Source: Bacteroidota bacterium
Lineage (GTDB): Bacteria > Bacteroidota > Bacteroidia > Palsa-965
Direction: 5' to 3'
DNA: 64,000 nucleotides
NCBI GenBank assembly: GCA_046335555.1
Contig: JBKDHA010000186.1
Coordinates: 4,912 to 68,911 of the forward strand
Shown here: in pieces, positions 1 through 12,710 of the stretch
Layout: the number at the start of each line of letters is the position of its first letter
How positions within the stretch are numbered: the stretch's first letter is position 1
Notes under the pieces: model-generated
The model's database searches: none
What the model was told of the DNA's origin: nothing
Seen by the model: the letters and a program-made list of their open reading frames with translations, nothing else
Made by a program: the position numbers and the translations under genes

Positions 1-300
1 AAAATTTCTGTTGTATAACGCTTGTTGCCGTCTTTGTCTTCCCAACTGCGGCTGCGGATTTTTCCTTCGAGATAAACTTGCTGGCCTTTGCGGAGAAATT
101 TCTCAGCTACTTCAGCCAATCGACGCCAGAGTACGATCTGGTGCCATTCTGTTTGCTCATTCTTGTTGCCGTTCTTGTCGCGAAATGTTTCTGTGGTAGC
201 AAGGGGAAAATTTGCAACTGCAATGCCTCCTTCGAGATAACGAACTTCGGGGTCTTTACCTAAATTACCGATCAGGATTACTTTGTTTACGCCAGCCATA
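1..300 (-). CDS. ssb: Single-stranded DNA-binding protein, 5' part only (3' end lies beyond the window start)
   Basis: Minus-strand ATG at 300..298 translates to [46 protein letters not shown]...[42 protein letters not shown], a canonical SSB OB-fold N-terminus. The frame stays open to position 1. Absent from the ORF track because no stop codon falls inside the window. Confidence 0.85.
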
Positions 301-685
301 GTGTACGTGTTGGTTAAAATGTGTGTCAGATACCGTTTTTAGCGGAAAGGTTTTGTACTTAGTATTTCTGTTAATGCAATTGGTGAAATAACAAAATTAA
401 CACAATAGGTGATATTGCCAAACTTGCGAGTTCACACTGCTGAAAATCAGCACCAAAGAGCATTACAAAAATACATACAAAATCACGTTATCCTGACAAA
501 TCATGCGAAATCAATTAAAATTATGTTTGCTTTTATTTTACAGTTGTAAGTAATGTCTGCTTGTAATTTAGTTTAGCCCAACTACACAAAAAGCCGGAAA
601 CAGGGTTAATAAAGCGACTTTCAAACAATTCTGCAGAATAATCAGAACGCCTGATCTGATAAAAATGCGAAACAAGACTGCGCGT

Positions 686-1747
686 TTAGAAAAGCCGTAA
701 GTTGATTGCAGCATTACGATAACGCGAAATCAAAACCGGAACAGCCAAAGCATCAAACTCTTTTTCATCAATCAGTTTGAAATCACCGGTAAGTTCGCCG
801 GGCAACGCTTTGTTTAACTTGACTTCATAAAACTTAGCATGCAGGCGCTGGTGACTGAGTACATGCAGAAATTCGTCCGACACATTTACAATTTCTGTTT
901 TGCGGGCAGTGCTCCAAAGTTTCCAAACCTCGTTGTTCAGCGGATCATCTTCGGCTGTTTTGGTTTCGATGAGCGGATAATCGTAAAGTCCTTGCCAGAT
1001 GTCGCCTGCAGAGCGCCTGCGCACATAAAATTTTGAGCCTGCACGCAAGATAAAATAGTGCAAAAACCGGTTGGTTACTTTGGTCTTTTTGGCTTTTACT
1101 GGTAACTCAGCAATGCGCTGTGTTCGGCGGGCTTCGCAGGTTTGGGCAAAAACACAAACACCGCAGTTGGGCGAACGCGGCACACACTGCAAAGCCCCGA
1201 ACTCCATTATTGCCTGATTATGCGTAGCCGGGTCGCGGCGGTCGAGCAGTTCTGCGGCTAATTCGCGAAACTGTTTTTTCCCGGCAGTACTGTCTATCGG
1301 CGTATCAATTCCAAAAACACGCGCAAGTACACGATATACGTTACCGTCAACCACCGGTTCAGCAATATCGTATGCAAATGAACCAATGGCGGCGGCAGTA
1401 TATTCGCCGATTCCTTTGAGCGAAAGCAGTTGATGATATGTATCAGGAAAAATTCCGTTGTGGTTTTCGGCAATAATTTTAGCTGTTTTGTGGAGGTTTC
1501 TGGCTCTGGAATAGTAGCCAAGTCCTTGCCAGAGCTTGAGTACATCTTCCTCCGAAGCAGCGGCAAGTGCAGAAATATTGGGCCAGGCGGCGGCAAAGTT
1601 TTTGTAATATTTTCGCCCCTGTTCTACCCTGGTTTGTTGTAAAATGACCTCCGAAAGCCAAATAAGGTAGGGATCGCGGGTATGCCTCCAGGGCAAATCG
1701 CGTTTATTTTTGGTGTACCAAAGCCTTATTTGACGGGAAAAATCCAT
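686..1747 (-). CDS. mutY: A/G-specific adenine DNA glycosylase MutY
   Basis: 353-aa ORF with an HhH-GPD glycosylase core (LPGIGEYTAAAI), a 4Fe-4S Cys cluster (CVPRSPNCGVCVFAQTC) and a C-terminal NUDIX-like domain. The mutY-ssb adjacency is typical of Bacteroidota. Confidence 0.9.
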   Translation of the reverse strand: MDFSRQIRLWYTKNKRDLPWRHTRDPYLIWLSEVILQQTRVEQGRKYYKNFAAAWPNISALAAASEEDVLKLWQGLGYYSRARNLHKTAKIIAENHNGIFPDTYHQLLSLKGIGEYTAAAIGSFAYDIAEPVVDGNVYRVLARVFGIDTPIDSTAGKKQFRELAAELLDRRDPATHNQAIMEFGALQCVPRSPNCGVCVFAQTCEARRTQRIAELPVKAKKTKVTNRFLHYFILRAGSKFYVRRRSAGDIWQGLYDYPLIETKTAEDDPLNNEVWKLWSTARKTEIVNVSDEFLHVLSHQRLHAKFYEVKLNKALPGELTGDFKLIDEKEFDALAVPVLISRYRNAAINLRLF

Positions 1748-1874
1748 TTTGTTTGTTAAACCGGGTGCTAAAATTACGTGGAAATTTTGGCGTTACAGGG
1801 AAATGCGTAAATTTGCAGCCCTCATTACCCGGCTTTGGTGCCGGATAAAAAATTGATAGTAAACAGTTTATACA

Positions 1875-2165
1875 ATGACCAAAGCAGAGATCGTTGCAGA
1901 GATTGCCGAAAAAACCGGCGTAGAGAAGGTAGCCGTACAGGCATCCATTGAAGCCTTCATGAAAGTGGTAAAAGGCTCATTAGCCAAGGGAGATAACGTA
2001 TATCTCCGTGGTTTCGGAAGCTTTATCGTGAAGCGTCGTGCCGAGAAAACCGGCCGCAACATTTCAAAAAACACGTCGGTAATTATTCCGGCGCATAATG
2101 TTCCCGCTTTCAAGCCGGCCAAAACATTTACCGAGAAGGTGAAGAAAAGCGTAAAAGCATCCTAA
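1875..2165 (+). CDS. hup: HU-family DNA-binding protein
   Basis: 96-aa ORF MTKAEIVAEIAEKTGVEKVAVQASIEAFMKVVKGSLAKGDNVYLRGFGSFIVKRRAEKTGRN carries the HU/IHF signature. Confidence 0.85.
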   Translation: MTKAEIVAEIAEKTGVEKVAVQASIEAFMKVVKGSLAKGDNVYLRGFGSFIVKRRAEKTGRNISKNTSVIIPAHNVPAFKPAKTFTEKVKKSVKAS

Positions 2166-2183
2166 CCTGTCTTTCTGCTGCAC

Positions 2184-3047
2184 ATGGCTAAGCTCGGCCC
2201 AACACAATGGATTGTACTCGGCGCGGCAGCAGCCTGTTTCGTTCTTTTCAGTTTTGTAAATACAGTTCCCGCAACGCGTAAAGCGCCAGCCGGGCAAATG
2301 CAGGCCGCCCAAAACAGCGAAACTATTCCGCTGGAAAAGCAGCTTGCCGAAGCCCGCAAACGCTTAACACCCGAAGCTGCCGCAACTTTAACACGGCTCG
2401 AACAGCAGGCCGGTACACAACCTGATTTTGTGAACCGTCGTCAATTGCTCGACTCCGCTGTTCGTATTGCGGTAAAATCCGGTGAATATGTTCTGGCGGC
2501 TTCTCTGGCACAGCGCAAGGCCGAAACCTGCAATGGTTCATCGGTTGACTGGCAGCTGGCCGGAGAGCGGTATCAGAATGCAGCAGCATTTATGGGCGAA
2601 AAACAGGGGCCTCAGTATCTGGGAGCCTTGTTTGAATCGGCCATGCACTGTTTTCGTGAAGCGCTTGCTTTAGACGGTAATAACCTTGATGCCCGCGTGG
2701 GTTTGGGTGCCAGCATTGTGCAGGGCACTTCAGATCCGATGGCCGGTATTCAGGAATTGCTTGCCGTTGAAAAAGCAGACTCAACAAACGTTAATGCCCA
2801 GCTTGTGCTTGGCGATTTTGCAGTACGCTCTGAGCAATACAGCAAAGCTATCGACCGCTACAAAAAAGCCTTACGTTTGCGCCCCGATCTTTACGGATTG
2901 CACCTGAGTCTGGCCGAACTGTATGAACATGAAGGCGACACCGCCTCAACCATCGTTAACCTTGAAGCATATTTGTCAAAGGCCGACGATCCAATTGTAA
3001 AAAATGATGTGGAGAATGCCATTCGCAAACTTCGCTCATCCAAATAG
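2184..3047 (+). CDS. TPR-repeat protein with an N-terminal transmembrane anchor
   Basis: 287-aa ORF with an N-terminal hydrophobic segment (WIVLGAAAACFVLFSF) and TPR-like helical repeats in the C-terminal half. Confidence 0.5.
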   Translation: MAKLGPTQWIVLGAAAACFVLFSFVNTVPATRKAPAGQMQAAQNSETIPLEKQLAEARKRLTPEAAATLTRLEQQAGTQPDFVNRRQLLDSAVRIAVKSGEYVLAASLAQRKAETCNGSSVDWQLAGERYQNAAAFMGEKQGPQYLGALFESAMHCFREALALDGNNLDARVGLGASIVQGTSDPMAGIQELLAVEKADSTNVNAQLVLGDFAVRSEQYSKAIDRYKKALRLRPDLYGLHLSLAELYEHEGDTASTIVNLEAYLSKADDPIVKNDVENAIRKLRSSK

Positions 3048-3073
3048 TAATTCATTCATTAAACAACTACAAC

Positions 3074-3169
3074 ATGCCCAGCGGTAAAAAAAGAAAGCGC
3101 CATAAAATGGCCACCCACAAGCGCAAGAAGCGCCTCAGAAAAAATCGTCACAAGAAGAAGAACCGCTAG
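3074..3169 (+). CDS. 31-aa extremely basic peptide, possibly a bS22-like ribosomal or RNA-binding protein
   Basis: ATG 3074 to TAG 3167-3169 translates to MPSGKKRKRHKMATHKRKKRLRKNRHKKKNR. The composition and the KKR..H..MA..K..KRL pattern resemble small basic ribosomal proteins of the bS22 class. A clean intrinsic terminator follows. Too short to appear in the ORF track. Confidence 0.4.
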   Translation: MPSGKKRKRHKMATHKRKKRLRKNRHKKKNR

Positions 3170-3182
3170 GAGCTGATCGCTT

Positions 3183-3224
3183 AAACCGCAGCTTTGGTTC
3201 ATTCCGAAGCTGCGGTTTTTATTT
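3183..3224 (+). terminator. Rho-independent terminator
   Basis: Stem aaaccgcagctt / aagctgcggttt around the loop ggttcattccg, followed by TTTTATTTG. Confidence 0.6.
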
Positions 3225-3244
3225 GATCTGCTTTACCATAGTGT

Positions 3245-4918
3245 GTGATTGAAGCCTTACAAATAATTGTATGGTTTCTGTTTACTTCAACTTACAGTTT
3301 ATCTGATTGCAAGCCCATCCCAAGTTGGGAGCTGGGCAATGCTTTATTTAACGCGCTAACATCTGTGTCAAACGAACTGATCATTGATGCCTCCAATTCT
3401 GAGGTTGTGATCGCTCTTTTAAACGACAAGCGACTGGTGGAACTCAACCGTGAGAAAACCAACAGTCAGTTTGCTGTGGGCGACATTTACCTCGGCCGGG
3501 TGCGAAAAGTGATGCCAGGCTTGAATGCTGCGTTCGTTGATGTTGGTTACGAGAAAGATGCTTTCCTGCATTATTTTGACCTCGGTCCGCAGGTAATGTC
3601 GCTGAATAAATTTGTGCGGATGACCGTTACAGGACGGCAAAAGCACGCAGCACTTACCTATTTTAAGAACGAACCGGAGATTAATAAAGACGGCAAAATT
3701 GGTGATGTATTGCAACCCGATCAGCATGTGCTGATTCAGATTGCGAAAGAGCCTATTTCAACAAAAGGCCCTCGCATTACTTCCGAACTTTCGATTGCAG
3801 GGCGTTACATCGTGCTGATTCCTTTTTCCGAAAAAGTTTCTGTTTCACAGAAAATAAAAAGCAACGAAGAGCGCGAACGACTCAAGAGACTCATCATGAG
3901 TATCAAGCCGAAGAATTTCGGCGTTATCGTTCGTACTGTTGCCGAAGGAAAAGGAGTTGCCGATCTCGATGCCGACATGAATGACCTGGTGGGAAAATGG
4001 AACACCTGTTTCCAGGAACTCATCAAAGCCAAGCCTGCGCAGCGCGTGCTCGGCGAGATCAACCGTACATCTGCCATTTTGCGTGATATGCTGAACAATT
4101 CGTTCAATGCAATTCATGTGAACGACGGACAGATGCACGATGAGATCAAAATGTATTTACAGACGATTGCGCCTGACAAGGAAAAAATTCTGAAACAGCA
4201 CAAAGGGCCTCAGCCCATTTTTGAGCACTTCGGAATCGACCGTCAGATCAAAGCGCTTTTCGGTAAAACGGTGACCATGAAAAGTGGCGCCTACCTCATT
4301 ATTGAACATACCGAAGCCCTGCACGTTGTTGACGTGAACAGTGGCAACAGGTCGAAACTGCACAGCGACCAGGAGAGCAATGCGCTCGACGTAAACATGG
4401 AAGCTGCTTCAGAAATTGCACGTCAGCTTCGTTTGCGTGATATGGGCGGAATTATCGTGATCGATTTTATCGACATGCACTCGCCCAATAACCGCAAAGC
4501 ACTCTTTACCAAGCTGCGCGACGAAATGAAGGCCGACCGGGCCAAGCACACCATTCTGCCTCCGAGCAAATTCGGACTTGTGCAGATTACCCGCGAGCGT
4601 GTGCGCCCCGAAACCAACATTGAAACGGCCGAAAAATGCCCCACCTGCGGCGGCTCAGGACAGGTGCAGGCCAGCGTTCTGCTCATTGACCAGATTGAAA
4701 ATAATCTGCGCTATGTTCTCCGCGAACAAAATGAGAAAAAGGTTACGCTGCGTGTGCATCCTTACATTGCCGCATTTCTTACTAAAGGCTGGATTACCTC
4801 ACTGCGCTGGAAATGGATGCGTCGCTACCGTCGCCCGATCAGCGTGAAATCAGTTCCGTCGTACCAATTCCTCGAGTATCACTTCTTCAACGCTCAGGAC
4901 GACGAAATCAAAGTGTAA
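3245..4918 (+). CDS. rng: Ribonuclease E/G family protein (RNase G-like)
   Basis: S1 domain (GDIYLGRVRKVMPGLNAAFVDVGYEKDAFLH), catalytic DNase-I-like core (HVVDVNSG...IVIDFIDM) and a Zn-link (CPTCGGSG). The ATG at 3245 gives a long N-terminal extension. The true start is probably downstream, for example the in-frame GTG at about 3365 (VSNELIIDASNSEVVIALL). Confidence 0.85.
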   Translation: MIEALQIIVWFLFTSTYSLSDCKPIPSWELGNALFNALTSVSNELIIDASNSEVVIALLNDKRLVELNREKTNSQFAVGDIYLGRVRKVMPGLNAAFVDVGYEKDAFLHYFDLGPQVMSLNKFVRMTVTGRQKHAALTYFKNEPEINKDGKIGDVLQPDQHVLIQIAKEPISTKGPRITSELSIAGRYIVLIPFSEKVSVSQKIKSNEERERLKRLIMSIKPKNFGVIVRTVAEGKGVADLDADMNDLVGKWNTCFQELIKAKPAQRVLGEINRTSAILRDMLNNSFNAIHVNDGQMHDEIKMYLQTIAPDKEKILKQHKGPQPIFEHFGIDRQIKALFGKTVTMKSGAYLIIEHTEALHVVDVNSGNRSKLHSDQESNALDVNMEAASEIARQLRLRDMGGIIVIDFIDMHSPNNRKALFTKLRDEMKADRAKHTILPPSKFGLVQITRERVRPETNIETAEKCPTCGGSGQVQASVLLIDQIENNLRYVLREQNEKKVTLRVHPYIAAFLTKGWITSLRWKWMRRYRRPISVKSVPSYQFLEYHFFNAQDDEIKV

Positions 4919-4942
4919 GCACTTTAAAAAAGCCATTTTTAA

Positions 4943-4980
4943 AAAACCACTCCCGGTATAAATCGGAAGTGGTTTTTTGT
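4943..4980 (+). terminator. Probable rho-independent terminator of rng
   Basis: aaccactcccg ... cggaagtggtt stem with one mismatch, followed by a TTTTTTGTTTG tract. Confidence 0.5.
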
Positions 4981-5114
4981 TTGACCAATGCTCATATTCA
5001 GGTATAAACCCGCATTTCAATATTTCGTCCTTATTATATATTTAAAGCACGGTCAAACTCCGATTTATTGCTTCCCGTTCGCACCACATCACCCATTTCT
5101 CCAAATCATCGAAG

Positions 5115-6332
5115 ATGAAAAAATCTCCCGCTTCCCGAGATTCAGCAGTTTCAAAATCTTCAGCTCATGCAACGGTTCAATCGCCGCAAAAAACAGGAAA
5201 ATCTTTTTTTGCGGTTAGAGATTTTACTGTACATCGGCCCTCACCACAGGCACAGCAGCACACTCAAGAACAATCTGCTCCGATAAACGAATCGGTGCAG
5301 CCGCTACAGCGCATGAAGGTGGATGCCGAAGAAGGAATGGATGATAAACTAGGAACAAAAGATAGAATAAAGGTTTATCAGCTTATTACTATTATGAATT
5401 CTGCTGTGGCTAATCTTCTCAATAAAGAAGACAAGATCATTGTAGAGATAATAAACAATGGAGAAATGAGCCCGGCATGGAATCATCACAAGGGCACAAA
5501 AGAGCATCCGGGGCGGGTTGGCGATATTGGTGTGCAGTTAAACAGTTGGTACATCGAAAAAGCTTCTCTCGGCGAATTACTCGGAATGTTTGTGCATGAA
5601 ATTGGTGTGCATACTCTCGCCGACAGGCAAATGGGGAAGGAAAACCCAAACGAGAATCTGAAAAAGGATACAAATATTTACAGCGAAAGAGTTTCGCAGG
5701 GATACGACCACACACATCCCTCAGGGCACGAAATTGGGTACTATCCTACACCAGATGAAAAAAACAAAAAAGGAAGATCGCGCCAGGCCGATCATGTAAA
5801 TCTGGCCAAAAGTTTAGCGGGTTCTTCAAGCGAAAGAGGAAGATATTATATAGATACTTACTTGCGTACCGGCGATTCTATTTCGAAAAACATCAAAGAT
5901 CCGAAAGAGCGGGATGAGGCACTATTTGATCTTACCCGATATTTTCTTTTCGATATATCGCGCATTATTGCCACCAACGACGGGGCTCCGCTTGATATTC
6001 TCCGCAGCACAAAAAAAATCGGAGAACTGATGGAATATTACAAACATGAGCTGGCAGAAGATCACAAGGAAGAACATCCGTGGCTTGAAGAAACAGTGAT
6101 GAGTGTAAATACAAAGGCTTCGACCATTCAAAAATGGTTAGTGAGTCAGATGATAGCTATGGCTACGTCTTCCAATCCCGCTGTGCAAAAAGGACGAGCG
6201 GCATTAACAGGTCTTGGCGCAGCATATATAGTAGGAGGCGGTTTGGCAGGCATGATTTCGGCACCGGCACTACTTACAGGAATTGGTGTAGGCATTGGCG
6301 TATGGGGGCTGCAAAAACTATTTGGCGTGTAG
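5115..6332 (+). CDS. HExxH-motif protein (DUF4157-like putative metallopeptidase or toxin-like domain) with a C-terminal glycine-zipper membrane segment
   Basis: 405-aa ORF. The N-terminus is S/Q/P-rich and looks disordered. The central motif GELLGMFVHEIGVHTLADRQ places HExxH in a DUF4157-like context (LLAHELTHVVQ). The C-terminus GLGAAYIVGGGLAGMISAPALLTGIGVGIGVWGL is a Gly-zipper hydrophobic segment. No signal peptide and no T9SS C-terminal domain. Confidence 0.5.
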   Translation: MKKSPASRDSAVSKSSAHATVQSPQKTGKSFFAVRDFTVHRPSPQAQQHTQEQSAPINESVQPLQRMKVDAEEGMDDKLGTKDRIKVYQLITIMNSAVANLLNKEDKIIVEIINNGEMSPAWNHHKGTKEHPGRVGDIGVQLNSWYIEKASLGELLGMFVHEIGVHTLADRQMGKENPNENLKKDTNIYSERVSQGYDHTHPSGHEIGYYPTPDEKNKKGRSRQADHVNLAKSLAGSSSERGRYYIDTYLRTGDSISKNIKDPKERDEALFDLTRYFLFDISRIIATNDGAPLDILRSTKKIGELMEYYKHELAEDHKEEHPWLEETVMSVNTKASTIQKWLVSQMIAMATSSNPAVQKGRAALTGLGAAYIVGGGLAGMISAPALLTGIGVGIGVWGLQKLFGV

Positions 6333-6338
6333 TACAGA

Positions 6339-6388
6339 TCGAAACTGCACAGCGAGCAGAAAAGCAATGCGGACGAAATCAAAGTATA
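6339..6388 (+). pseudogene. Degenerate relic of the RNase E/G 3' coding sequence (in-frame fusion of two rng segments)
   Basis: 6339-6374 matches rng 4352-4387: tcgaaactgcacagcga is a 17/17 identity and agcaatgcg is 9/9. 6371-6388 matches the rng 3' end 4901-4918: gacgaaatcaaagt is 14/14, followed by TAA. The relic translates to SKLHSEQKSNADEIKV*, against SKLHSDQESNA...DEIKV* in rng. It is in the same frame as the upstream HExxH gene and immediately follows that gene's TAG stop. Confidence 0.6.
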
Positions 6389-6411
6389 AATCAATCATCG
6401 AAACATTTTTA

Positions 6412-6456
6412 TCATGCTCCGAAATCAATTATGATTTCGGAGCATGACTTTTTTAT
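6412..6456 (+). terminator. Rho-independent terminator
   Basis: Perfect stem tcatgctccgaaat / atttcggagcatga around the loop caattatg, followed by CTTTTTTAT. Confidence 0.6.
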
Positions 6457-6596
6457 ACTTAATAATGCACATACGGGATAATTTTTCCAGATAATGGAAA
6501 CCGTCAGTCAACAATAATTACGTAAAAATCTAATTATCAGAACACTACTGTTTTGGCATACCGCATGATTCAGAATGGCACACAAACTCTGAGATC

Positions 6597-7220
6597 ATGA
6601 AAAAAATTTCCGCATTAGTGGCATTCATCTTCATCGCTGTGATGAGAATGTATGCCACTGGTGAACCCTCAACCTACTTCAACATGATCGCCACAAGTCA
6701 TGAGTATGAACTAAGTATAACTCCGGAAGGCTTATTTACGTGGACGTTTAGCGGCATCAACTTACCCGACAGTGCAACAAATGAGGAAGGCAGTAACGGA
6801 TTTATTGAATTTGAAATTGCTCTGCAAAATGGGCTTCCGTCGGGTACAGTTATTCGCAACAGCGCTGAAATCATCTTTGATTTTGAGGATGCAATTCGTA
6901 CAAATACAGTAATCAATACAATCAAATTCATCCGCAATGGCGAAGGTGAATCACTTACAGCCTATCCTAATCCTACAAAAAATTCAATAACAATAAGCGC
7001 TCCGGGAGCATCAGAAATGTATGCCGATCAGCTGTTGTTTACAAAATGTATTGTTTATGCTGCCGACGGAAGAGTGATGTATGAAAATACATTTACTCCA
7101 TCAGCACAACACAATGTACAAACCGCTATGTGGCCAGGCGGTGTTTATGTGGCCGAATTACAAACAGCGGAAGGTGAACGCCGCTTTATCCGAATCGTTC
7201 ACCAATCGGAACGAGAATAG
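6597..7220 (+). CDS. Small secreted protein with a type-A T9SS C-terminal sorting domain
   Basis: N-terminal signal peptide (MKKISALVAFIFIAVM). The C-terminus YPNPTKNSITISAPG...GVYVAELQTAEGERRFIRIVHQ matches the por-secretion-tail pattern. Confidence 0.55.
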   Translation: MKKISALVAFIFIAVMRMYATGEPSTYFNMIATSHEYELSITPEGLFTWTFSGINLPDSATNEEGSNGFIEFEIALQNGLPSGTVIRNSAEIIFDFEDAIRTNTVINTIKFIRNGEGESLTAYPNPTKNSITISAPGASEMYADQLLFTKCIVYAADGRVMYENTFTPSAQHNVQTAMWPGGVYVAELQTAEGERRFIRIVHQSERE

Positions 7221-7642
7221 TGTATTTGGCAACAGATTCAATAATGCAGGGGTGCGTTAACTCTGTTGCCTTTACACTATTTCTAAGCTCCCGAAAATCA
7301 AAAAAGAGTAGTTGTATCGGTATGTGTCAGTGTGTGTGTTTAAATTTATCCGATGCAATTACTCTTTTTATTTCTCAAATCCATAGAGCCTGTTAGAAGA
7401 TATCAAGCACTTCATTATTCTTCTGCTTTAAAATTTCATCAGGTAATACTTCCATTAGTTTATCTGCAAAAGCTTTTACCAATCTTTCTTTTAACGTGCT
7501 CCTGTGCATCACCAAACTGATTTGCCGCACCGGAACTAGTGAATGAAACGGAATAAGTCGCGATTTAAGTTTTAGCAGGAGTTCGAAAGCTGCAAGTTCC
7601 GGAAGTATGGAAAATCCCGGCCATAATTATCAGCAAAAATTT

Positions 7643-8380
7643 TTATACACTCCGCACACCAAGCTGAAGGTGTGTATAATCGGCAATCACGATATTCAGG
7701 AATTGAAGATCGGGTAATTGCTGCGGGGGAGGATAAACGCCAATTACTTCTTTTACTTTATGTGAAAGCCGGGAAAGCATTTCGTAGTTGCCGGTTTCAA
7801 ACGATTGCAGCATAATTTCGCGGATGATGCCGATGTCTTTATCGTTAAAGCGTTCGACCTGCGGAAACACAATGCGGTAATTGGGATGCACGTAGCTTAG
7901 AATTGTGCTGCGCAAACTTGTTTTCTGATTTACCCGAATCACAATGGTATCGGCAGCCATGTCGCCGATGCGCTGTCCGCGGTTGCTGATAATGCTGATA
8001 AGTGCTGCGAGTCCCGGAAATAATGCGGCTTCACATTCAAGCACTCGGGTAATCCAGCGAATGGCAAAATCGCCAATACCGGCCGGCGATCCGTCGCTTT
8101 TTACCACTTTTATTCCCATAATCATTTTGCCAAATGAACGTCCCGAAAAAAGGGCTTCCGTCCATAATGTATAGGTCATAACCGGCAAAACGAGAAGTAA
8201 AATAACCGGCTGAAAACCTTCTTCCATTCCAATTGCAAGACCTGCAACCCACATTATTATCAGCCAGTAAGCACCCATAAAAAACAAATCAAGCAGCCGA
8301 GCCGTGAAGCGTTCGCCGATGCTTGCGGTTTCAAACTGAATGACTACGTTTTGCGTGGTTGTAATCCGGGCAATATCCAT
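7643..8380 (-). CDS. RDD-family membrane protein
   Basis: 245 aa with two or three transmembrane helices and the RDD-domain signature (RLLDLFFMGAYWLI ... GQRIGDMAADTIVIR). Confidence 0.75.
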   Translation of the reverse strand: MDIARITTTQNVVIQFETASIGERFTARLLDLFFMGAYWLIIMWVAGLAIGMEEGFQPVILLLVLPVMTYTLWTEALFSGRSFGKMIMGIKVVKSDGSPAGIGDFAIRWITRVLECEAALFPGLAALISIISNRGQRIGDMAADTIVIRVNQKTSLRSTILSYVHPNYRIVFPQVERFNDKDIGIIREIMLQSFETGNYEMLSRLSHKVKEVIGVYPPPQQLPDLQFLNIVIADYTHLQLGVRSV

Positions 8381-8397
8381 TGCGTTAAAAATACAAA

Positions 8398-9738
8398 ATG
8401 AATTGCTTCAATCATGCAGCAGGTTGTTTATCTTCGCATATAACCCGTATGAAAGAAATAAGGTTTCTTCAGGAAAACCATCAGCTGTGGCTTCGTTTTG
8501 AGCAAATGCTGGATGAAAAGCAGCAGGACACACACGAGCCGGATGCGCTGGCTGATTTGTTTGTGCGCATTACCGATGATCTTTCGTGGGCACGTACCTA
8601 TTATCCGGGTTCATCAACAGAAAAATACCTGAACGACCTTGCTGCGCGTGCTTATCTGCTTATCTACAAAAACAAGCGCGAGCGCCGCAGCCGCATTCTG
8701 AGTTTCTGGTCTGAAGAAATTCCGCTGCTGATGCGCAAAAACCTGGGGAATCTGCTTATCACATTTGTGATATTCGGACTCTCGGTTTGGGTGGGAATTA
8801 TTTCGGCAAGTCATGATGAAGGTTTTGTGAGGCTGATCCTCGGCGATGAATATGTTGACCGCACTTTAGATAATATGAGTCAAGGCGATCCGCTGGGCAT
8901 TTACAAATCGCCGAATCATTTTATGATGTTCTTCGAAATTGCGCTGAACAATGCAAAGGTTGCGCTGGTGTGTGTGCTGGCCGGAATATTAAGCTGGATA
9001 GGAGTTGCATTTATACAGTTCCGAAACGGTGTAATGCTCGGCGCATTTATGTACTTCCTGAGCAGCGAAGGATTTTACCGCGAGTCGATGCTTACGGTTT
9101 GGATACACGGCACAATAGAAATTTTCTGCATTGTAGTTTCCGGTGCTGCCGGTCTTGCATTTGGCCGCGGGCTTTGGTTTCCGGGCGCATGGCCAAGAGG
9201 CAAAGCATTTCTGCATTCTTCCCGCGAAGCATTAAAAATTGGTCTCGGACTAATTCCCTTCTTTTTTCTGGCCGCATTTTTTGAAGGCTTCCTCACACGC
9301 TTTACAGGCATGCACGATGCGCTGCGCGTGCTGATTATTGCAGCTTCTCTGTTCCTGATGATCGGCTATTTTATAGTATGGCCCATTATTCTTGGTCGCG
9401 AAACATCACGTCTGGGGCGTGTTTCAACCGATCAGGATGCCGAAAAACCGTCGGGAAGATTGGCTGCGGCCAAGCTGTATATTCTGCAAAGTAATTCGCG
9501 TTTCATATTGCTGCTTGCCATTTCGGCAATGCTGTTTTTGCTGCCTACGCTTGCTATCGTCATGCACTTTGTACTTGGGCAGCATGCCGAAACATTTACG
9601 TATTTCTTCTTTGCCTGTTGCTACGGACTTGCCGGTCTTATGATTACGCTGGCCATCCGCAACCGTACTGAACGCGAAGAAAACGAGCTCACAATCCGCC
9701 GATTCAGCAACCGAAAACGTGCAGGTTATGAGCAGTAA
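8398..9738 (+). CDS. SpoIIM-like (DUF95) membrane protein
   Basis: Multi-transmembrane protein with a DUF95/SpoIIM-like layout. The ATG at 8449 (MKEIRFLQENHQLW) is a more likely start than 8398, which would leave only a 17-bp divergent gap to the RDD gene. Confidence 0.6.
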   Translation: MNCFNHAAGCLSSHITRMKEIRFLQENHQLWLRFEQMLDEKQQDTHEPDALADLFVRITDDLSWARTYYPGSSTEKYLNDLAARAYLLIYKNKRERRSRILSFWSEEIPLLMRKNLGNLLITFVIFGLSVWVGIISASHDEGFVRLILGDEYVDRTLDNMSQGDPLGIYKSPNHFMMFFEIALNNAKVALVCVLAGILSWIGVAFIQFRNGVMLGAFMYFLSSEGFYRESMLTVWIHGTIEIFCIVVSGAAGLAFGRGLWFPGAWPRGKAFLHSSREALKIGLGLIPFFFLAAFFEGFLTRFTGMHDALRVLIIAASLFLMIGYFIVWPIILGRETSRLGRVSTDQDAEKPSGRLAAAKLYILQSNSRFILLLAISAMLFLLPTLAIVMHFVLGQHAETFTYFFFACCYGLAGLMITLAIRNRTEREENELTIRRFSNRKRAGYEQ

Positions 9739-10720
9739 CAGAGGGGCTTTCCGATTAGAACGGGTGCGCTCGTTTGGCGCTGTCTTCAACGATACCAAAC
9801 GTATTCTGCGCGAAAATCTCAGTGCATTTCTTGGCGTTCTGGTACTTATTATCGGGCCGGTTGTGCTTACCACAACAACGCTTAACGTTTACTACATCAA
9901 CTATCTTTTCGACGGAAAAGAGTTTTACGAATTTGAAAATTTCGGTTCATATATTGGTTTCCGGAGTTTGCTTTCGCAAAGTACTTCACTGTTTAACGGA
10001 TTGTTTGCGGCACTTGTTATTTCACACTTCCTGAAAGTTTGCCGCGAAAAAGGATCAGGGCGATTCAGTGTTTCGGATGTAAGTTATTCGCTGCGTAAAG
10101 ATGCCGGAACTGCAATTATTCAGTTTGTTTTGCTGCTTGTACTTTGTGCAGCACTCGGCATTTGTATTACAGCAATTTTGATTTGGATGGCCTCCGAATC
10201 CAGCGGAGGAGTTGCCGGGCTGATTATTTTCTTTGGCGCTGTTGGTTATATGCTGCTCCGCTACCCGTTCTGGCATATTGTGTTTTCAATTTTCATGGCA
10301 CGGGGCTCAACTACAGGCGCACCGGGCAATACACAGCGCCCGGGCTGGTTCGAGTCGTTTAGTCTTGCAACAACTGTTATGTCGGGACAATGGTGGCGCA
10401 CCTGGGCTGTAATGTTTTGCATGTGGGCTTTGCTCATGGCAGTTGGGTATCTGATTACAATCACTTCATCCTTTGGCTCGCAAATACTGGATATGTTCGG
10501 GCTTCAGGCTTCGTTTGATGAGGTTACACAAACCCTGATCAACACCATATTTCAGATTGTAAGTGATTTTGCGCGTACACTTGTAAACTGTGTGTTTTGC
10601 GTTGCAGTAGGTTTACACTATTACAGTCTGAAAGAATTCAAGTTCGGTTATACCATTACCGAACAACTCAATAAAATTGGCAACAACAGTACCGATGAAG
10701 ATGTTGAGCTCAGTTACTGA
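9719..10720 (+). CDS. Polytopic membrane protein of unknown function
   Basis: 333 aa with at least 6 predicted transmembrane segments. Overlaps the upstream gene by 20 nt on the same strand, which implies an operon. Confidence 0.5.
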   Translation: MQVMSSNRGAFRLERVRSFGAVFNDTKRILRENLSAFLGVLVLIIGPVVLTTTTLNVYYINYLFDGKEFYEFENFGSYIGFRSLLSQSTSLFNGLFAALVISHFLKVCREKGSGRFSVSDVSYSLRKDAGTAIIQFVLLLVLCAALGICITAILIWMASESSGGVAGLIIFFGAVGYMLLRYPFWHIVFSIFMARGSTTGAPGNTQRPGWFESFSLATTVMSGQWWRTWAVMFCMWALLMAVGYLITITSSFGSQILDMFGLQASFDEVTQTLINTIFQIVSDFARTLVNCVFCVAVGLHYYSLKEFKFGYTITEQLNKIGNNSTDEDVELSY

Positions 10721-11474
10721 ACGGTTCATCCGTTTGTTTCTGCTGCTGCTGTTTGTTGCGGCACCTTTGCTGCTGCCTGCAAAAACAGCCGACAGTCTCA
10801 GCACCGATACATCGAAGGTGATGATGCGTGAGCCGGATCCGGAAACGCAAAAAAGTTATTACAGCGACGATTTTTATCGTTACGAACGCAAACGCGGACT
10901 CGAAGACGAAACTTTTTTTGATCGTTTGCTGCGTTCATTTTTTGAAGATAAAGACGAAGATGTTGACCCCAATATTGATTTGCCGGAAAATATTGACAGC
11001 ATCTCACGCGGCGCTCAGGCATTGAATTATCTGCTGCTGGCATTGGCTGTAGGCTTATTGGTTTGGGGATTGATCCGCGCACTTAAAAGCGGATCTGCCG
11101 GAAGACTTTTCAGCGGAAAAACAAAAGGCAGCGACGAAGAAATTGATGCCAGCGTTGAGGATGTAGATATACATTCCATCAACTACGAAACACAAATTGC
11201 GGCAGCCCGCGACCGCGGCGATTTTCGTTATGCGGTGCGGCTTTGGTTTTTAAGCACACTCAAAAATTTCACCGACCGCGAACTGCTGAACTGGAAACCC
11301 GAAAAAACAAATATGGATTACTACTACGAATTGAGCGGTAATCCGATGCAGAAAAAATTCGGCGATATAAGCCGGGTTTACGATTATGTATGGTACGGCG
11401 AACGTGCCATAAATGCCGGCGATTACGAACATGCCGAAGAACAGTTCCGCGATCTGAACCGGAGTTTAAACTAG
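10677..11474 (+). CDS. DUF4129 domain membrane protein
   Basis: Two transmembrane segments plus a C-terminal region (ETQIAAARDRGDFRYAVRLWFLSTLKNFTDRELLNWKPEKTNMDYYYEL...DYVWYGER) typical of DUF4129. The start may be ATG 10695 (MKMLSS). Confidence 0.6.
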   Translation: MATTVPMKMLSSVTERFIRLFLLLLFVAAPLLLPAKTADSLSTDTSKVMMREPDPETQKSYYSDDFYRYERKRGLEDETFFDRLLRSFFEDKDEDVDPNIDLPENIDSISRGAQALNYLLLALAVGLLVWGLIRALKSGSAGRLFSGKTKGSDEEIDASVEDVDIHSINYETQIAAARDRGDFRYAVRLWFLSTLKNFTDRELLNWKPEKTNMDYYYELSGNPMQKKFGDISRVYDYVWYGERAINAGDYEHAEEQFRDLNRSLN

Positions 11475-11480
11475 AATGCA

Positions 11481-12710
11481 ATGCTGAAACGCAGTTGGTT
11501 TCTCTTCTTGCTCTTTGGCCTCGCGGTGGCTCTGCTGGTGACCCTCTCCGGCCGAAACGCCGAGCGCCAGTATTCGTGGCGGGATTTCTACACTGCGGAA
11601 GAACGTCAGCCGTGGGGCTGTAAGATTTTCAGAGATTATGCCGATGAACTTTTCGACGGAGAAGTAACTAATGTGCGCAGCACTATTACCGATCAGTTCA
11701 GAAAAAATGATGTGCCGAAAGGAAATTACATCATCATCAACTCCAACTTTGCGCCTACTTTTTCGGATGTTGGTTATTTATGCCAGTATGCCGAACAGGG
11801 CAGCTCGGTATTTATTGCAGCACAAGAATTCGGATTGCTCGAAGATTCGCTGAAGTTTCGTGCCGGCGGAACAAATCCTGATGATTTTGATTTCAATACT
11901 ACCGATGATGTCAGTCCTGCTGATCAGAAACGAGTGGACACCATACGTTTCGCCAATTTCCTGAATCCGAATCTTAAAAAATCAACCGACTATATTTTCG
12001 ACAGAGAATACAATCAACGCATTTTCAAATTTGCGAATGACAAAAATACAACTGCACTTGGTCGCGACGGCTACGGCAATATCAATTTCATTCGTGTAAA
12101 ATGGGGCAAGGGTGAATTCCTGCTGCATACAATTCCCAAAGCTTTTACCAATTATTACATGGCCGATTCGGCAACATCGTCTTATGGTTTCAAAGCCATG
12201 TCGTATTTGCCAGTTCAGCAAACATTCTGGGATGAGCATTACAAAGACGGACTTCGTGAGAGCAATGACACCCGGCGTTTTCTGATGTCGGAGCCGGCTC
12301 TTAAATTAGCATATTTAGTACTTGTGGTTACCGGCGCATTGCTGCTGCTCTTCCGCGGAAAACGCCGCCAGCGGGCTGTTCCGGAAGTTAAGCCGGTAAT
12401 AAATTCGACACTTGCATTTGTTGAAACAATTGGAACATTGTATTACCGCGAAGGAAATACACAAGACATCATCAATAAAAAAGCAAGCTATTTTCTGGAA
12501 TCTGTCCGCTCCCGTTTTTATGTGCAGACAACAGTTTTTGATGAGCCATTTCTGCAAAAAGTTTCAGGATTATCTGGCGTAAATTATGCGCAGGTAATGC
12601 AGTTGTTTGGCTTCATCGGTCAGCTGCGTGCTATGCAGGGCGGCGGCGATACCGAACTGCGAAAGCTGGAACAGATGATCTGGGATTTTAATCAAAACAG
12701 TAAACGATAA
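11481..12710 (+). CDS. DUF4350 domain protein (N- and C-proximal transmembrane segments around a large periplasmic domain)
   Basis: 409 aa with an N-terminal transmembrane segment, a second transmembrane segment LAYLVLVVTGALLLLFRGKRRQ, and a C-terminal cytoplasmic tail. This architecture usually accompanies MoxR/DUF58 genes. Confidence 0.55.
   Translation: MLKRSWFLFLLFGLAVALLVTLSGRNAERQYSWRDFYTAEERQPWGCKIFRDYADELFDGEVTNVRSTITDQFRKNDVPKGNYIIINSNFAPTFSDVGYLCQYAEQGSSVFIAAQEFGLLEDSLKFRAGGTNPDDFDFNTTDDVSPADQKRVDTIRFANFLNPNLKKSTDYIFDREYNQRIFKFANDKNTTALGRDGYGNINFIRVKWGKGEFLLHTIPKAFTNYYMADSATSSYGFKAMSYLPVQQTFWDEHYKDGLRESNDTRRFLMSEPALKLAYLVLVVTGALLLLFRGKRRQRAVPEVKPVINSTLAFVETIGTLYYREGNTQDIINKKASYFLESVRSRFYVQTTVFDEPFLQKVSGLSGVNYAQVMQLFGFIGQLRAMQGGGDTELRKLEQMIWDFNQNSKR

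Follow-up and report, generated by a model that had tools for sequence, protein, structure and literature searches.

A 56-nt stretch behind the stop codon of a 405-aa HExxH protein gene in an uncultured Bacteroidota lineage is a fragment of the RNase G gene, rng. We judge it, with a probability of about 0.85, to be the scar of a recombination, in either direction, between two alternative layouts of the DNA that separates rng from an RDD-family gene. In the type-1 layout, rng is followed by terminator 1, the HExxH gene and the RDD gene, with no relic; in the type-2 layout, it is followed by terminator 2, a T9SS cargo gene and a LysR gene, with no HExxH gene. The window, as we call the entire 64,000-nt stretch of DNA analysed, carries a composite of the two (Table 1) in a neighbourhood that encodes SSB, MutY, HU, TPR, rng, RDD, SpoIIM, DUF4129, DUF4350, MoxR and DUF58 proteins. 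All comparisons are based on metagenome assemblies, and the relatives were found via the protein cluster of the TPR neighbour.

Table 1 Features of the rng–RDD interval (window coordinates)
Feature	Position	Strand	Evidence or remark
rng (RNase E/G family)	3245–4918	+	Maximal ORF (starts chosen by gene callers give 517–557 aa); PF10150, E = 2e-96
Source piece A in rng	4347–4384	+	Codons directly past the catalytic DVNSG motif
Source piece B in rng	4901–4918	+	Final 5 codons and TAA
Terminator 1	4941–4984	+	Inverted repeat I9, arms 4941–4955 and 4964–4978; alignment of intergenic regions
HExxH/Gly-zipper protein gene, 405 aa	5115–6332	+	dN/dS ~0.2; same protein in at least six other contigs
Illegitimate junction, type-1 sequence (through TAG and one T) to rng fragment	6333/6334		Comparison with L081 and L082 flanks and with rng
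Relic piece A′	6334–6371	+	34/38 to rng 4347–4384; same in all composite contigs
Relic piece B′	6372–6389	+	Former rng stop-proximal 18 nt; 17/18 to 4901–4918
Terminator 2	6412–6456	+	16-bp perfect hairpin (6412–6447) plus T tract; fold z = -5.2
Leader/promoter region of T9SS cargo gene	6457–6596	+	Homologous to L087 10803–10942
207-aa T9SS cargo remnant	6597–7220	+	Pfam, NCBIfam, L087 gene table, BLAST breakpoints
LysR-type regulator remnant, last 73 codons	7399–7617	-	tblastn 82% over 73 aa, E = 5e-31
RDD-family membrane protein gene	7643–8380	-	Gene tables, tblastn; conserved right border of the variable interval

The initial annotation had read these nucleotides as a genuine rng fragment, in frame behind the HExxH TAG, and as a sign of rearrangement at the 3′ end of rng, and on both points it was right. 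A repeat finder aligned 6334–6376 with rng 4347–4389 at 86% over 43 nt, of which the truly homologous part is piece A′, including a 17-nt exact run at rng 4352–4368; the next 18 nt, piece B′, match the end of rng at all positions but one. Across the 64-kb window, these pieces match only rng and themselves (at up to three mismatches for A′ and one for B′), and a second match to either was obtained in 0/100 dinucleotide shuffles. The two pieces abut (38 + 18 nt), and rng 4385–4900 (516 nt, 172 codons) is absent between them. The relic begins one base past the TAG and continues the frame of the 405-aa ORF (...FGV-stop-YRSKLHSEQKSNADEIKV-stop); this coincidence of frame and that of the 516-nt gap have a joint chance of about 1/9, and we attach no meaning to them. 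At the 6333/6334 joint, microhomology amounts to at most 2 nt. The relic shares its codon states (AGx, TCG, ATC AAA GTG TAA) with the clade of the window and not with L081, L082, L096 or L001, indicating that it derives from the rng gene of a close relative. Both synonymous and non-synonymous changes separate it from rng. With four changes in 38 nt, A′ differs from rng by more than third positions of rng differ within the species (1.7% relative to L087; rng dS 0.026), so the composite allele is old.

Both parental arrangements occur in related genomes. The type-1 layout is found in L081, L082 and L093–L095, which are more distant, genus-level relatives, and terminator 1, as part of this layout, is conserved in the intergenic alignments of L081, L082 and L091. 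Our finding of rng, terminator 1, HExxH and RDD without a relic in these genomes contradicts the idea that the HExxH gene is a newcomer to this site, and its composition (GC 0.442, GC3 0.387, within ~1.2 SD of the genes in the window) likewise gives no sign of foreignness. The type-2 layout is found in L087, L089 and L090. L087 and L089 are conspecific with the window and carry an intact T9SS cargo gene of 1544 aa right after terminator 2, so the presence/absence polymorphism at rng that had been proposed as a check does exist. Because the type-2 layout occurs in conspecific contigs, 6372–6685 can be recognized as the native rng downstream region of the alternative allele. It is 92.7% identical to L087 10718–11031, a segment that comprises the stop-proximal 18 nt of rng, terminator 2 and the first part of the 1544-aa gene. 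Piece B′ runs contiguously into terminator 2 exactly as the rng genes of L087, L089 and L090 do. Homology is continuous with type 2 rightwards from 6372 and with type 1 leftwards. The two terminators, correctly distinguished from the start, are unrelated in sequence: terminator 2 natively ends rng in the HExxH-less allele, its hairpin is preserved between haplotypes by a compensatory change of a T-A to a G-C pair, and it now lies 3′ of the HExxH gene, whose transcript we infer to end there.

The rng–RDD interval contains further deletion scars. The 207-aa ORF consists of a signal peptide, part of DUF7619 and Por_Secre_tail, and is the 1544-aa cargo gene minus 4,011 nt, lost by an in-frame internal deletion; the LysR-type regulator gene, reduced here to its last codons, is intact in L090; and the HExxH gene itself is truncated in L091 and L092. 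Among close relatives, the rng–RDD interval takes at least five configurations (HExxH, HExxH remnant, T9SS plus LysR, composite and empty). The composite allele, with the same 38-nt A′, is also present in at least six further contigs from different samples, and none of the seven composite contigs has a longer rng fragment. Scans of metagenome contigs with HExxH peptides and with a degenerate rng-end pattern gave no match. We also looked for traces of a relic in type-1 genomes. A candidate degenerate relic in the 61-nt spacer between the HExxH and RDD genes of L082 (CAATGCGG...GATGAA...CGGGATAATT) did not differ significantly from shuffled sequences (p = 0.04–0.15), and none was found in the corresponding spacer of L081.

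We give about even odds to our preferred direction, in which a type-1 chromosome received type-2 DNA. Whereas the homologies, alleles and breakpoints are direct observations, the direction of transfer and the order of events are what we infer from them. DNA from a related type-2 strain would have entered a type-1 chromosome, the left end of the incoming segment happening to fall inside rng at about codon 368. Homologous recombination, in the RDD gene or further on, would have joined its right side; illegitimate joining one base past the HExxH stop would have attached its left side and completed an event of homology-facilitated illegitimate recombination (HFIR). An illegitimate joint on one side with homologous sequence on the other is indeed what the composite contains. 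In the product, the HExxH gene would have been followed by 572 nt from the 3′ end of rng, by the terminator 2 native to this fragment and by the T9SS–LysR island. Later deletions of useless DNA would then have removed 516 nt from the rng fragment, 4,011 nt from the T9SS gene and most of LysR, and shortening of the rng repeat would also have eliminated a long direct repeat able to loop out the HExxH gene. The relic itself would be inert, an ordinary scar of genome evolution. Divergence across the locus has the corresponding asymmetry. Positions 1–4918 of the window are 98.66% identical to L087, and rng up to its stop codon is 98.7–99% identical to the metagenome contigs L087, L088 and L089. Left of the rng stop, the window differs from L087 by 1.3%; on the right, divergence is 5–16% and returns to ~2% by 8.3–8.5 kb. 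A right side that stems from another lineage, with a crossover close to this last point, would produce such a pattern. By contrast, L091 and L092 keep the HExxH 5′ end together with part of the LysR remnant, which suggests that the composite is older than the species split and weakens the reading of this asymmetry as a recent import.

The opposite direction, in which a type-2 chromosome gained the rng 3′ part, terminator 1 and HExxH gene from a type-1 relative, strikes us as a serious but rather doubtful alternative. One route would be for a circularised fragment to integrate in the Campbell manner, through a single crossover within rng. This would displace the recipient's own rng 3′ copy downstream, where it would decay to the relic, and would yield both the duplication and the junction of the HExxH stop with A′ in one step. 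Conspecific type-2 genomes exist, and rng is the best-conserved anchor of the neighbourhood (dN 0.024). The HExxH gene has a dS to L081 of 0.59, a value approached only by HU (0.68) and rng (0.69) and low compared with TPR (0.90), with RDD, SpoIIM and DUF4350 (1.5–1.6) and with mutY and a 330-aa ORF (higher or saturated, >3). In the sister species L091, the cassette allele is a different one: its terminator 1 region is only 57% identical, between flanks that are 92% identical, indicating that the HExxH cassette has itself moved between lineages. Both observations count against the direction we set out above and fit its reverse. However, the rng gene of the window is L087-like to its stop, with 0 mismatches in 4784–4918; compared with L081, its divergence peaks in the last block, and block-wise divergence reveals no L081-like, donor-derived 3′ tract. 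Transfer in this direction also predicts a right flank at conspecific divergence (~1%) rather than the 5–16% found, and all outgroups are type 1, making HExxH the older resident. The initial annotation had offered, as its first history, an element that entered the rng 3′ end and brought a replacement end. Its notion of a displaced or replaced end survives in something close to this second recombination route; the mobile element does not, as no integrase or transposase gene lies between rng and RDD. Among the alleles found, none retains the undeleted 572-nt fragment expected under our preferred history, and the 38-nt piece could instead be filler DNA, acquired by template switching during repair as the HExxH flank was joined straight to the last 18 nt of rng. 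This variant, which needs no 516-nt deletion and is compatible with both recombination models, would account for the same short relic in 7/7 composite contigs and for the origin of both pieces in one nearby gene. We find it improbable: on inspection, the joint between A′ and B′ lacks useful microhomology, and several simple deletions are known from elsewhere in this interval, so a later deletion would be unremarkable.

The remaining explanations fare worse. The second history originally proposed, in which the rng tail (and HExxH) was duplicated locally in tandem and then underwent internal deletions, would suit two copies in direct-repeat arrangement within 2 kb. It is very hard to sustain, because what follows the relic is terminator 2 and the T9SS leader, the other allele's native downstream sequence and not a copy of what follows rng, and because there is no second copy of terminator 1 or of HExxH. 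Near-identical 18-nt direct repeats (4901–4918 and 6372–6389) flank terminator 1, HExxH and A′ and could be taken for att sites of a mobile element integrated site-specifically at the rng 3′ end; an att-flanked island would indeed be bordered by direct repeats of its target's 3′ end. Such an island would also contain an integrase, but the only ORF between rng and the relic is HExxH, and none of the alleles encodes an integrase, transposase or recombinase anywhere in the interval. Homologs of the HExxH gene in other genomes are single genes in unrelated contexts with no rng pieces, and orthology to the type-2 rng end already accounts for the 18-nt repeat, leaving site-specific integration with only a slight chance of being correct. 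We give least credence of all to a functional relic, acting as a read-through extension of the HExxH protein or as a regulatory 3′ UTR or decoy that mimics rng mRNA. The relic is in frame with the ORF, would lie in the transcribed 3′ UTR ahead of terminator 2, and has an A′ that is invariant across composite contigs. These contigs are all close relatives, however, which leaves their identity with little weight, and the protein family ends uniformly at ...QKLFG(V/I/Y/W) and a stop. The mixture of synonymous and non-synonymous changes relative to rng and the complete lack of a relic in type-1 relatives also argue against function, as does an Rfam search of 4700–7800 that returned nothing credible, its single match being a sub-threshold one to a snoRNA.

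The HExxH gene, which its dN/dS indicates to be an accessory gene under purifying selection, encodes a protein with a disordered N-terminus, a weakly zincin-like core (residues ~66–350) and a hydrophobic Gly-rich C-terminus. H161, E162 and H166 do not vary among 12 sequences and fall within a predicted helix (152–172, pLDDT ~90), as in zincin-like metallohydrolases with a conserved HExxH on a helix, and the product is likely to be a membrane-anchored zincin-like hydrolase. Fold matches of the HEIGVH domain to zincins are weak: Foldseek searches of the PDB and of viral structures found no match at E < 1e-3, a PDB sequence profile search gave no match, and neither did searches of Pfam (E ≤ 0.1), NCBIfam, PADLOC or PHROGs. 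The closest known systems include minimal zincin-like metallohydrolases such as Wss1/WLM, YbeY, minigluzincins and M48/BepA. The motif had been assigned to a DUF4157-type context, an assignment we must revise, as PF13699 (DUF4157/eCIS_core) does not match the 405-aa protein. In P0009–P0011, P0102, P0103, P0106, P0108, P0109, P0112 and P0118, PF13699 matches an N-terminal extension that the window protein lacks; of these homologs, P0010 is from Flavobacterium. In all 12 eCIS_core-bearing homologs scanned (11 from two scans of 4 and 7, plus P0012 by precomputed annotation), PF13699 is N-terminal and the domain of the window protein C-terminal. In alignment A1, the long homologs have their DUF4157 motif (HEAWHVVQQ) in columns ~145–155, where the window protein reads FAVRDFTVH, and HEIGVH aligns with a second, downstream HExxH that is common to all members and belongs to a different, unnamed domain. 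Elsewhere, this domain appears to be a cargo domain of DUF4157 (eCIS) toxins.

'DUF4157 plus C-terminal toxin domain' is a described eCIS toxin architecture (PMC8213781; PMC11297309), and the homologs of the window protein share it; one, in L102, adjoins an AAA ATPase and two more eCIS_core proteins. The window protein differs in lacking PF13699 and in its surroundings, and the toxicity of its domain is only presumed. An eCIS-associated toxin (EAT) lies within ~10 genes of an eCIS operon or adjoins a DUF4157 gene (PMC11297309). The HExxH gene has neither among its neighbours: no eCIS genes occur within ~10 kb of it, and sheath, tube or baseplate families are not among the 25 of 56 Pfam families listed for the 35 ORFs beyond 13.8 kb. 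A polymorphic toxin–immunity module is also not indicated, as no conserved immunity gene is adjacent: the convergent RDD gene, 61 nt from the HExxH stop in L082, is also present in HExxH-less genomes, and homologs in other contexts neighbour a different 153-aa protein. Clustering at 50% identity gives 117 clusters for the family among 1.84 billion representatives; it is rare, unstudied and related to injected toxins. A more ambitious interpretation, which we hold to be unlikely, is that this is a new zincin-like toxin/effector domain of contractile injection systems, that the rng-side copy has been domesticated and kept by balancing or frequency-dependent selection, and that shortening of the relic was favoured. 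The DUF4157-less, Gly-zipper-anchored copy would then be a stand-alone derivative whose presence/absence and allelic polymorphism at the rng–RDD hot spot are old, with cassette alleles at odds with the species tree, and the shortened relic would have removed a long direct repeat that could otherwise delete the HExxH gene.

More broadly, HFIR is a documented mechanism, as is the displacement of 3′ gene ends (PMC3240628; PMC5361080), and orphan effector 3′ ends are known from the T6SS and Rhs loci of Vibrio cholerae (PMC5361080; PMC3240628). Like HFIR scars, the composite has one side in conserved sequence and an illegitimate other side with almost no microhomology. As in V. cholerae, alternative cassettes are swapped between strains at a fixed locus, and the 3′ fragment of a conserved gene is stranded downstream of a new or old cassette. 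Unlike the V. cholerae orphan ends, this fragment comes from a housekeeping RNase gene and not from a toxin with a variable 3′ end, does not serve as an orphan module and has shrunk to 56 nt; its mechanism is deduced from sequence only. The locus also resembles strain-variable genomic islets in its several configurations between core genes and its breakpoint exactly at a core gene end, although at 0.1–5 kb the rng–RDD interval is very small and has no mobility genes. The scar provides a datable, base-resolved case of accessory cassette swapping right downstream of a housekeeping gene in an uncultured Bacteroidota lineage, achieved without mobile-element genes and followed by stepwise deletional decay, and is a useful case study rather than a surprise. 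The HExxH family, absent from all four HMM libraries searched, points further ahead: in eCIS loci, it is this domain that makes up the C-terminal, presumably toxic portion of DUF4157 proteins, which makes it a candidate new effector domain.

The interval between rng and the convergent RDD membrane-protein gene is explained as carrying an old scar of recombination, in an islet downstream of rng that varies between strains. A 56-nt relic, starting one base past the stop of a 405-aa ORF with a HEIGVH motif (the HExxH gene), is built from two rng pieces: A′ (34/38 identical to rng 4347-4384, including a 17-nt exact run) and B′ (17/18 identical to rng 4901-4918). The 516 nt (172 codons) between these sources in rng are absent. 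Within the window neither piece matches anything but rng and itself, and 100 shuffles gave no second match to either, confirming the initial annotation's view that the stretch after the HExxH stop derives from rng; the relic region has no Rfam match. Its codon states (AGx, TCG, ATC-AAA-GTG-TAA) are those of the window's own clade and differ from those of the related contigs L081, L082, L096 and L001, so the source was a closely related rng. The four private changes in the 38 nt of A′ (two synonymous-type, two replacement) look like neutral decay. Divergence of A′ exceeds that of rng within the species (1.7% at third positions, dS 0.026), and the scar is therefore old relative to the species' diversity.

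Features of the rng-RDD interval and their counterparts (window coordinates unless a contig is named)
Feature	Position	Details
rng, RNase E/G family	ends at 4918	PF10150, E=2e-96
Terminator 1, hairpin after rng	arms 4941-4955 / 4964-4978	
HExxH ORF, 405 aa	5115-6332	TAG stop
Relic piece A′	6334-6371	
Relic piece B′	6372-6389	
Terminator 2	6412-6456	perfect 16-bp hairpin + T tract
207-aa ORF	6597-7220	DUF7619/Por_Secre_tail
Intact counterpart of 207-aa ORF	L087 10943-15577	
LysR remnant	7399-7617 (-)	final 73 codons of LysR-type regulator
Intact LysR counterpart	L090 15916-16851	
HExxH remnant locus, sister species	L091 4552-4903; L092 6249-6612	

Alleles of this interval were compiled from genome and metagenome look-ups, the closest relatives being reached through the 90% cluster of the upstream TPR gene. 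The type 1 layout, in which rng is followed by terminator 1, the HExxH gene and RDD, occurs in contigs L081, L093-L095 and L082, all from genus-level relatives (rng 96-97% aa identity, other genes 70-86%). The relic is absent from these five; a degenerate copy suspected in L082 was dropped, as the match was not significant. The HExxH-RDD spacer of L081 (9560-10120) is filled by a ~190-nt unit that is tandemly repeated about three times, with a long, REP/MITE-like palindrome in every copy, and in L096 only 121 nt separate rng from RDD. Contigs L087 and L089 share 98.7-99% identity with positions 1-4918 of the window, after which homology resumes at window 6372. In this type 2 layout, terminator 2 and the leader seen in the window come directly after the rng stop, ahead of a 1544-aa T9SS cargo gene that is intact (FG-GAP/ASPIC/DUF7619/Por_Secre_tail), and the interval has no HExxH gene; L090 (91% identical) shares the type 2 layout, its T9SS gene being followed by an intact LysR gene. 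The sister species, represented by L091/L092 (92% identical), still has terminator 1, the promoter region and ~70-80 nt from the 5′ end of an HExxH gene, after which a deletion reaches the equivalent of window 7545, within the LysR remnant in the RDD-proximal spacer; this is an independent loss of the gene. The window's composite layout is found again in L097-L101 and partly in L088, which come from at least six other samples; A′ is identical across all composite contigs.

B′, terminator 2 and the leader correspond by orthology to the native end of rng and the sequence after it in type 2 genomes, and everything from the rng stop to the HExxH stop in the window is type 1 sequence. This makes the window allele a recombinant of both layouts, with an illegitimate joint at 6333/6334 and microhomology of at most 2 nt. 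The initial annotation had proposed either a tandem duplication of the rng tail, which conflicts with the finding that copy and original are followed by different sequences, or an element integrating at the rng 3′ end, which as a site-specific event is unsupported because no allele contains a recombinase. A read-through extension of the HExxH protein is unlikely because the C-terminus is uniform across the family. The simplest account of the 516-nt gap is that these bases were deleted later, as happened at three other places in the interval; filler synthesis is a less likely alternative, compatible with the lack of any longer relic among composite contigs. A full 572-nt direct repeat would favour HExxH loss, and a shortened relic would therefore stabilise the composite.

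Two histories yield an identical structure. In the one we prefer, at a probability of about 0.5, a type 1 recipient would have taken up an rng fragment-terminator 2-T9SS-LysR...RDD segment from a type 2 donor, with a homologous anchor on the RDD side and an illegitimate join after the HExxH stop, matching textbook homology-facilitated illegitimate recombination (PMC3240628; cf. PMC5361080). We prefer it because it needs just one event of simple topology, because all outgroups have the type 1 layout, because the window differs from L087 by 1.3% left of the stop, by 5-16% to its right and by ~2% near 8.3-8.5 kb, and because the window's rng has no foreign 3′ tract. The converse, in which a type 2 recipient gained an rng 3′ part-terminator 1-HExxH segment that displaced its own rng 3′ end, possibly through single-crossover integration of a circularised fragment, is the less likely of the two. 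It is favoured by a dS to L081 of 0.59 for the HExxH gene, below most neighbouring genes (TPR 0.90; RDD, SpoIIM and DUF4350 1.5-1.6; mutY and a 330-aa ORF higher or saturated, >3) and approached only in strongly conserved HU (0.68) and rng (0.69). Moreover, the HExxH allele of L082 has diverged much more than the sequences flanking it (dS >2 versus about 1), and in L091 the terminator 1 region shares 57% identity with that of the window, versus 92% for the flanks. The terminator 1-HExxH cassette (4919-6332 versus L081, L082 and L091) is thus discordant with the species tree and has been exchanged between lineages.

Downstream of the relic, terminator 2 has two haplotypes, which differ at one stem position by a compensatory change from T-A to G-C (window 6412-6447 versus L087 10760-10795 / L097), the L087 form also being found in L097 and L101. 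A 59-nt patch (6386-6444) with nine private differences within otherwise shared sequence looks like a small conversion tract. The 207-aa ORF is the T9SS gene minus 4,011 nt, an in-frame internal deletion common to all composite contigs, and still has a signal peptide and C-terminal sorting domain. The same LysR truncation occurs in L087, and a LysR piece is left in L091/L092, suggesting that the island and HExxH cassette were together before those species split.

The HExxH protein has no matches in Pfam, NCBIfam, PADLOC or PHROGs and no PDB sequence match. A profile search found a small family (117 of 1.84 billion representatives at E<=1e-3) with invariant PAWNHHK, HEIGVH, RQxDHVNLAKS and FLFD..R..ATDDG motifs and a Gly-rich hydrophobic tail. 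In the AlphaFold model, residues 66-350 form a core predicted with confidence (pLDDT about 90), the N-terminal 65 residues are disordered and the C-terminal helices are of low confidence. Our best guess at the protein's role is that of a membrane-anchored metallohydrolase. The gene, with dN/dS of about 0.2 and 4/4 differences from L097 synonymous, is under purifying selection. In another lineage (L083/L085, 6001-7260 and neighbours), a 51% identical gene lies downstream of alaS, between a gene for a fatty-acid hydroxylase and a convergent 153-aa ORF that has no Pfam matches; the HExxH gene thus occurs singly in unrelated contexts. Giant proteins (P0119, 1680 aa; P0124, 6022 aa; also P0140 and P0142) contain 5-7 copies of a ~45-residue HExxH segment (profile positions 133-176), with no Pfam matches in P0119 or P0142, suggesting that this segment also exists as a repeated module.

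In all 12 eCIS_core-bearing homologs scanned, the eCIS_core/DUF4157 domain is N-terminal and contains a HExxH of its own, an arrangement that matches the 'DUF4157 + C-terminal toxin' architecture of eCIS toxins (PMC8213781, PMC11297309). In Flavobacterium sp. KACC 22763 (L102), a DUF4157-fused homolog is encoded next to an AAA ATPase and a further pair of eCIS_core proteins, one of them eCIS_core+Endonuclease_NS_2. The cluster (1-12700) also includes a GH-E-like protein and probably represents the cargo end of an eCIS operon. The window protein, by contrast, lacks this domain, and no eCIS genes were found within about 10 kb of its gene or among the 25 listed Pfam families (of 56) for the 35 ORFs beyond 13.8 kb, so its initial classification as 'DUF4157-like' was wrong, although homology supports a relationship to an eCIS cargo domain. 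The family is uncharacterised and mildly interesting, and the recombination is of a kind already known, documented here unusually well by surviving parental alleles.
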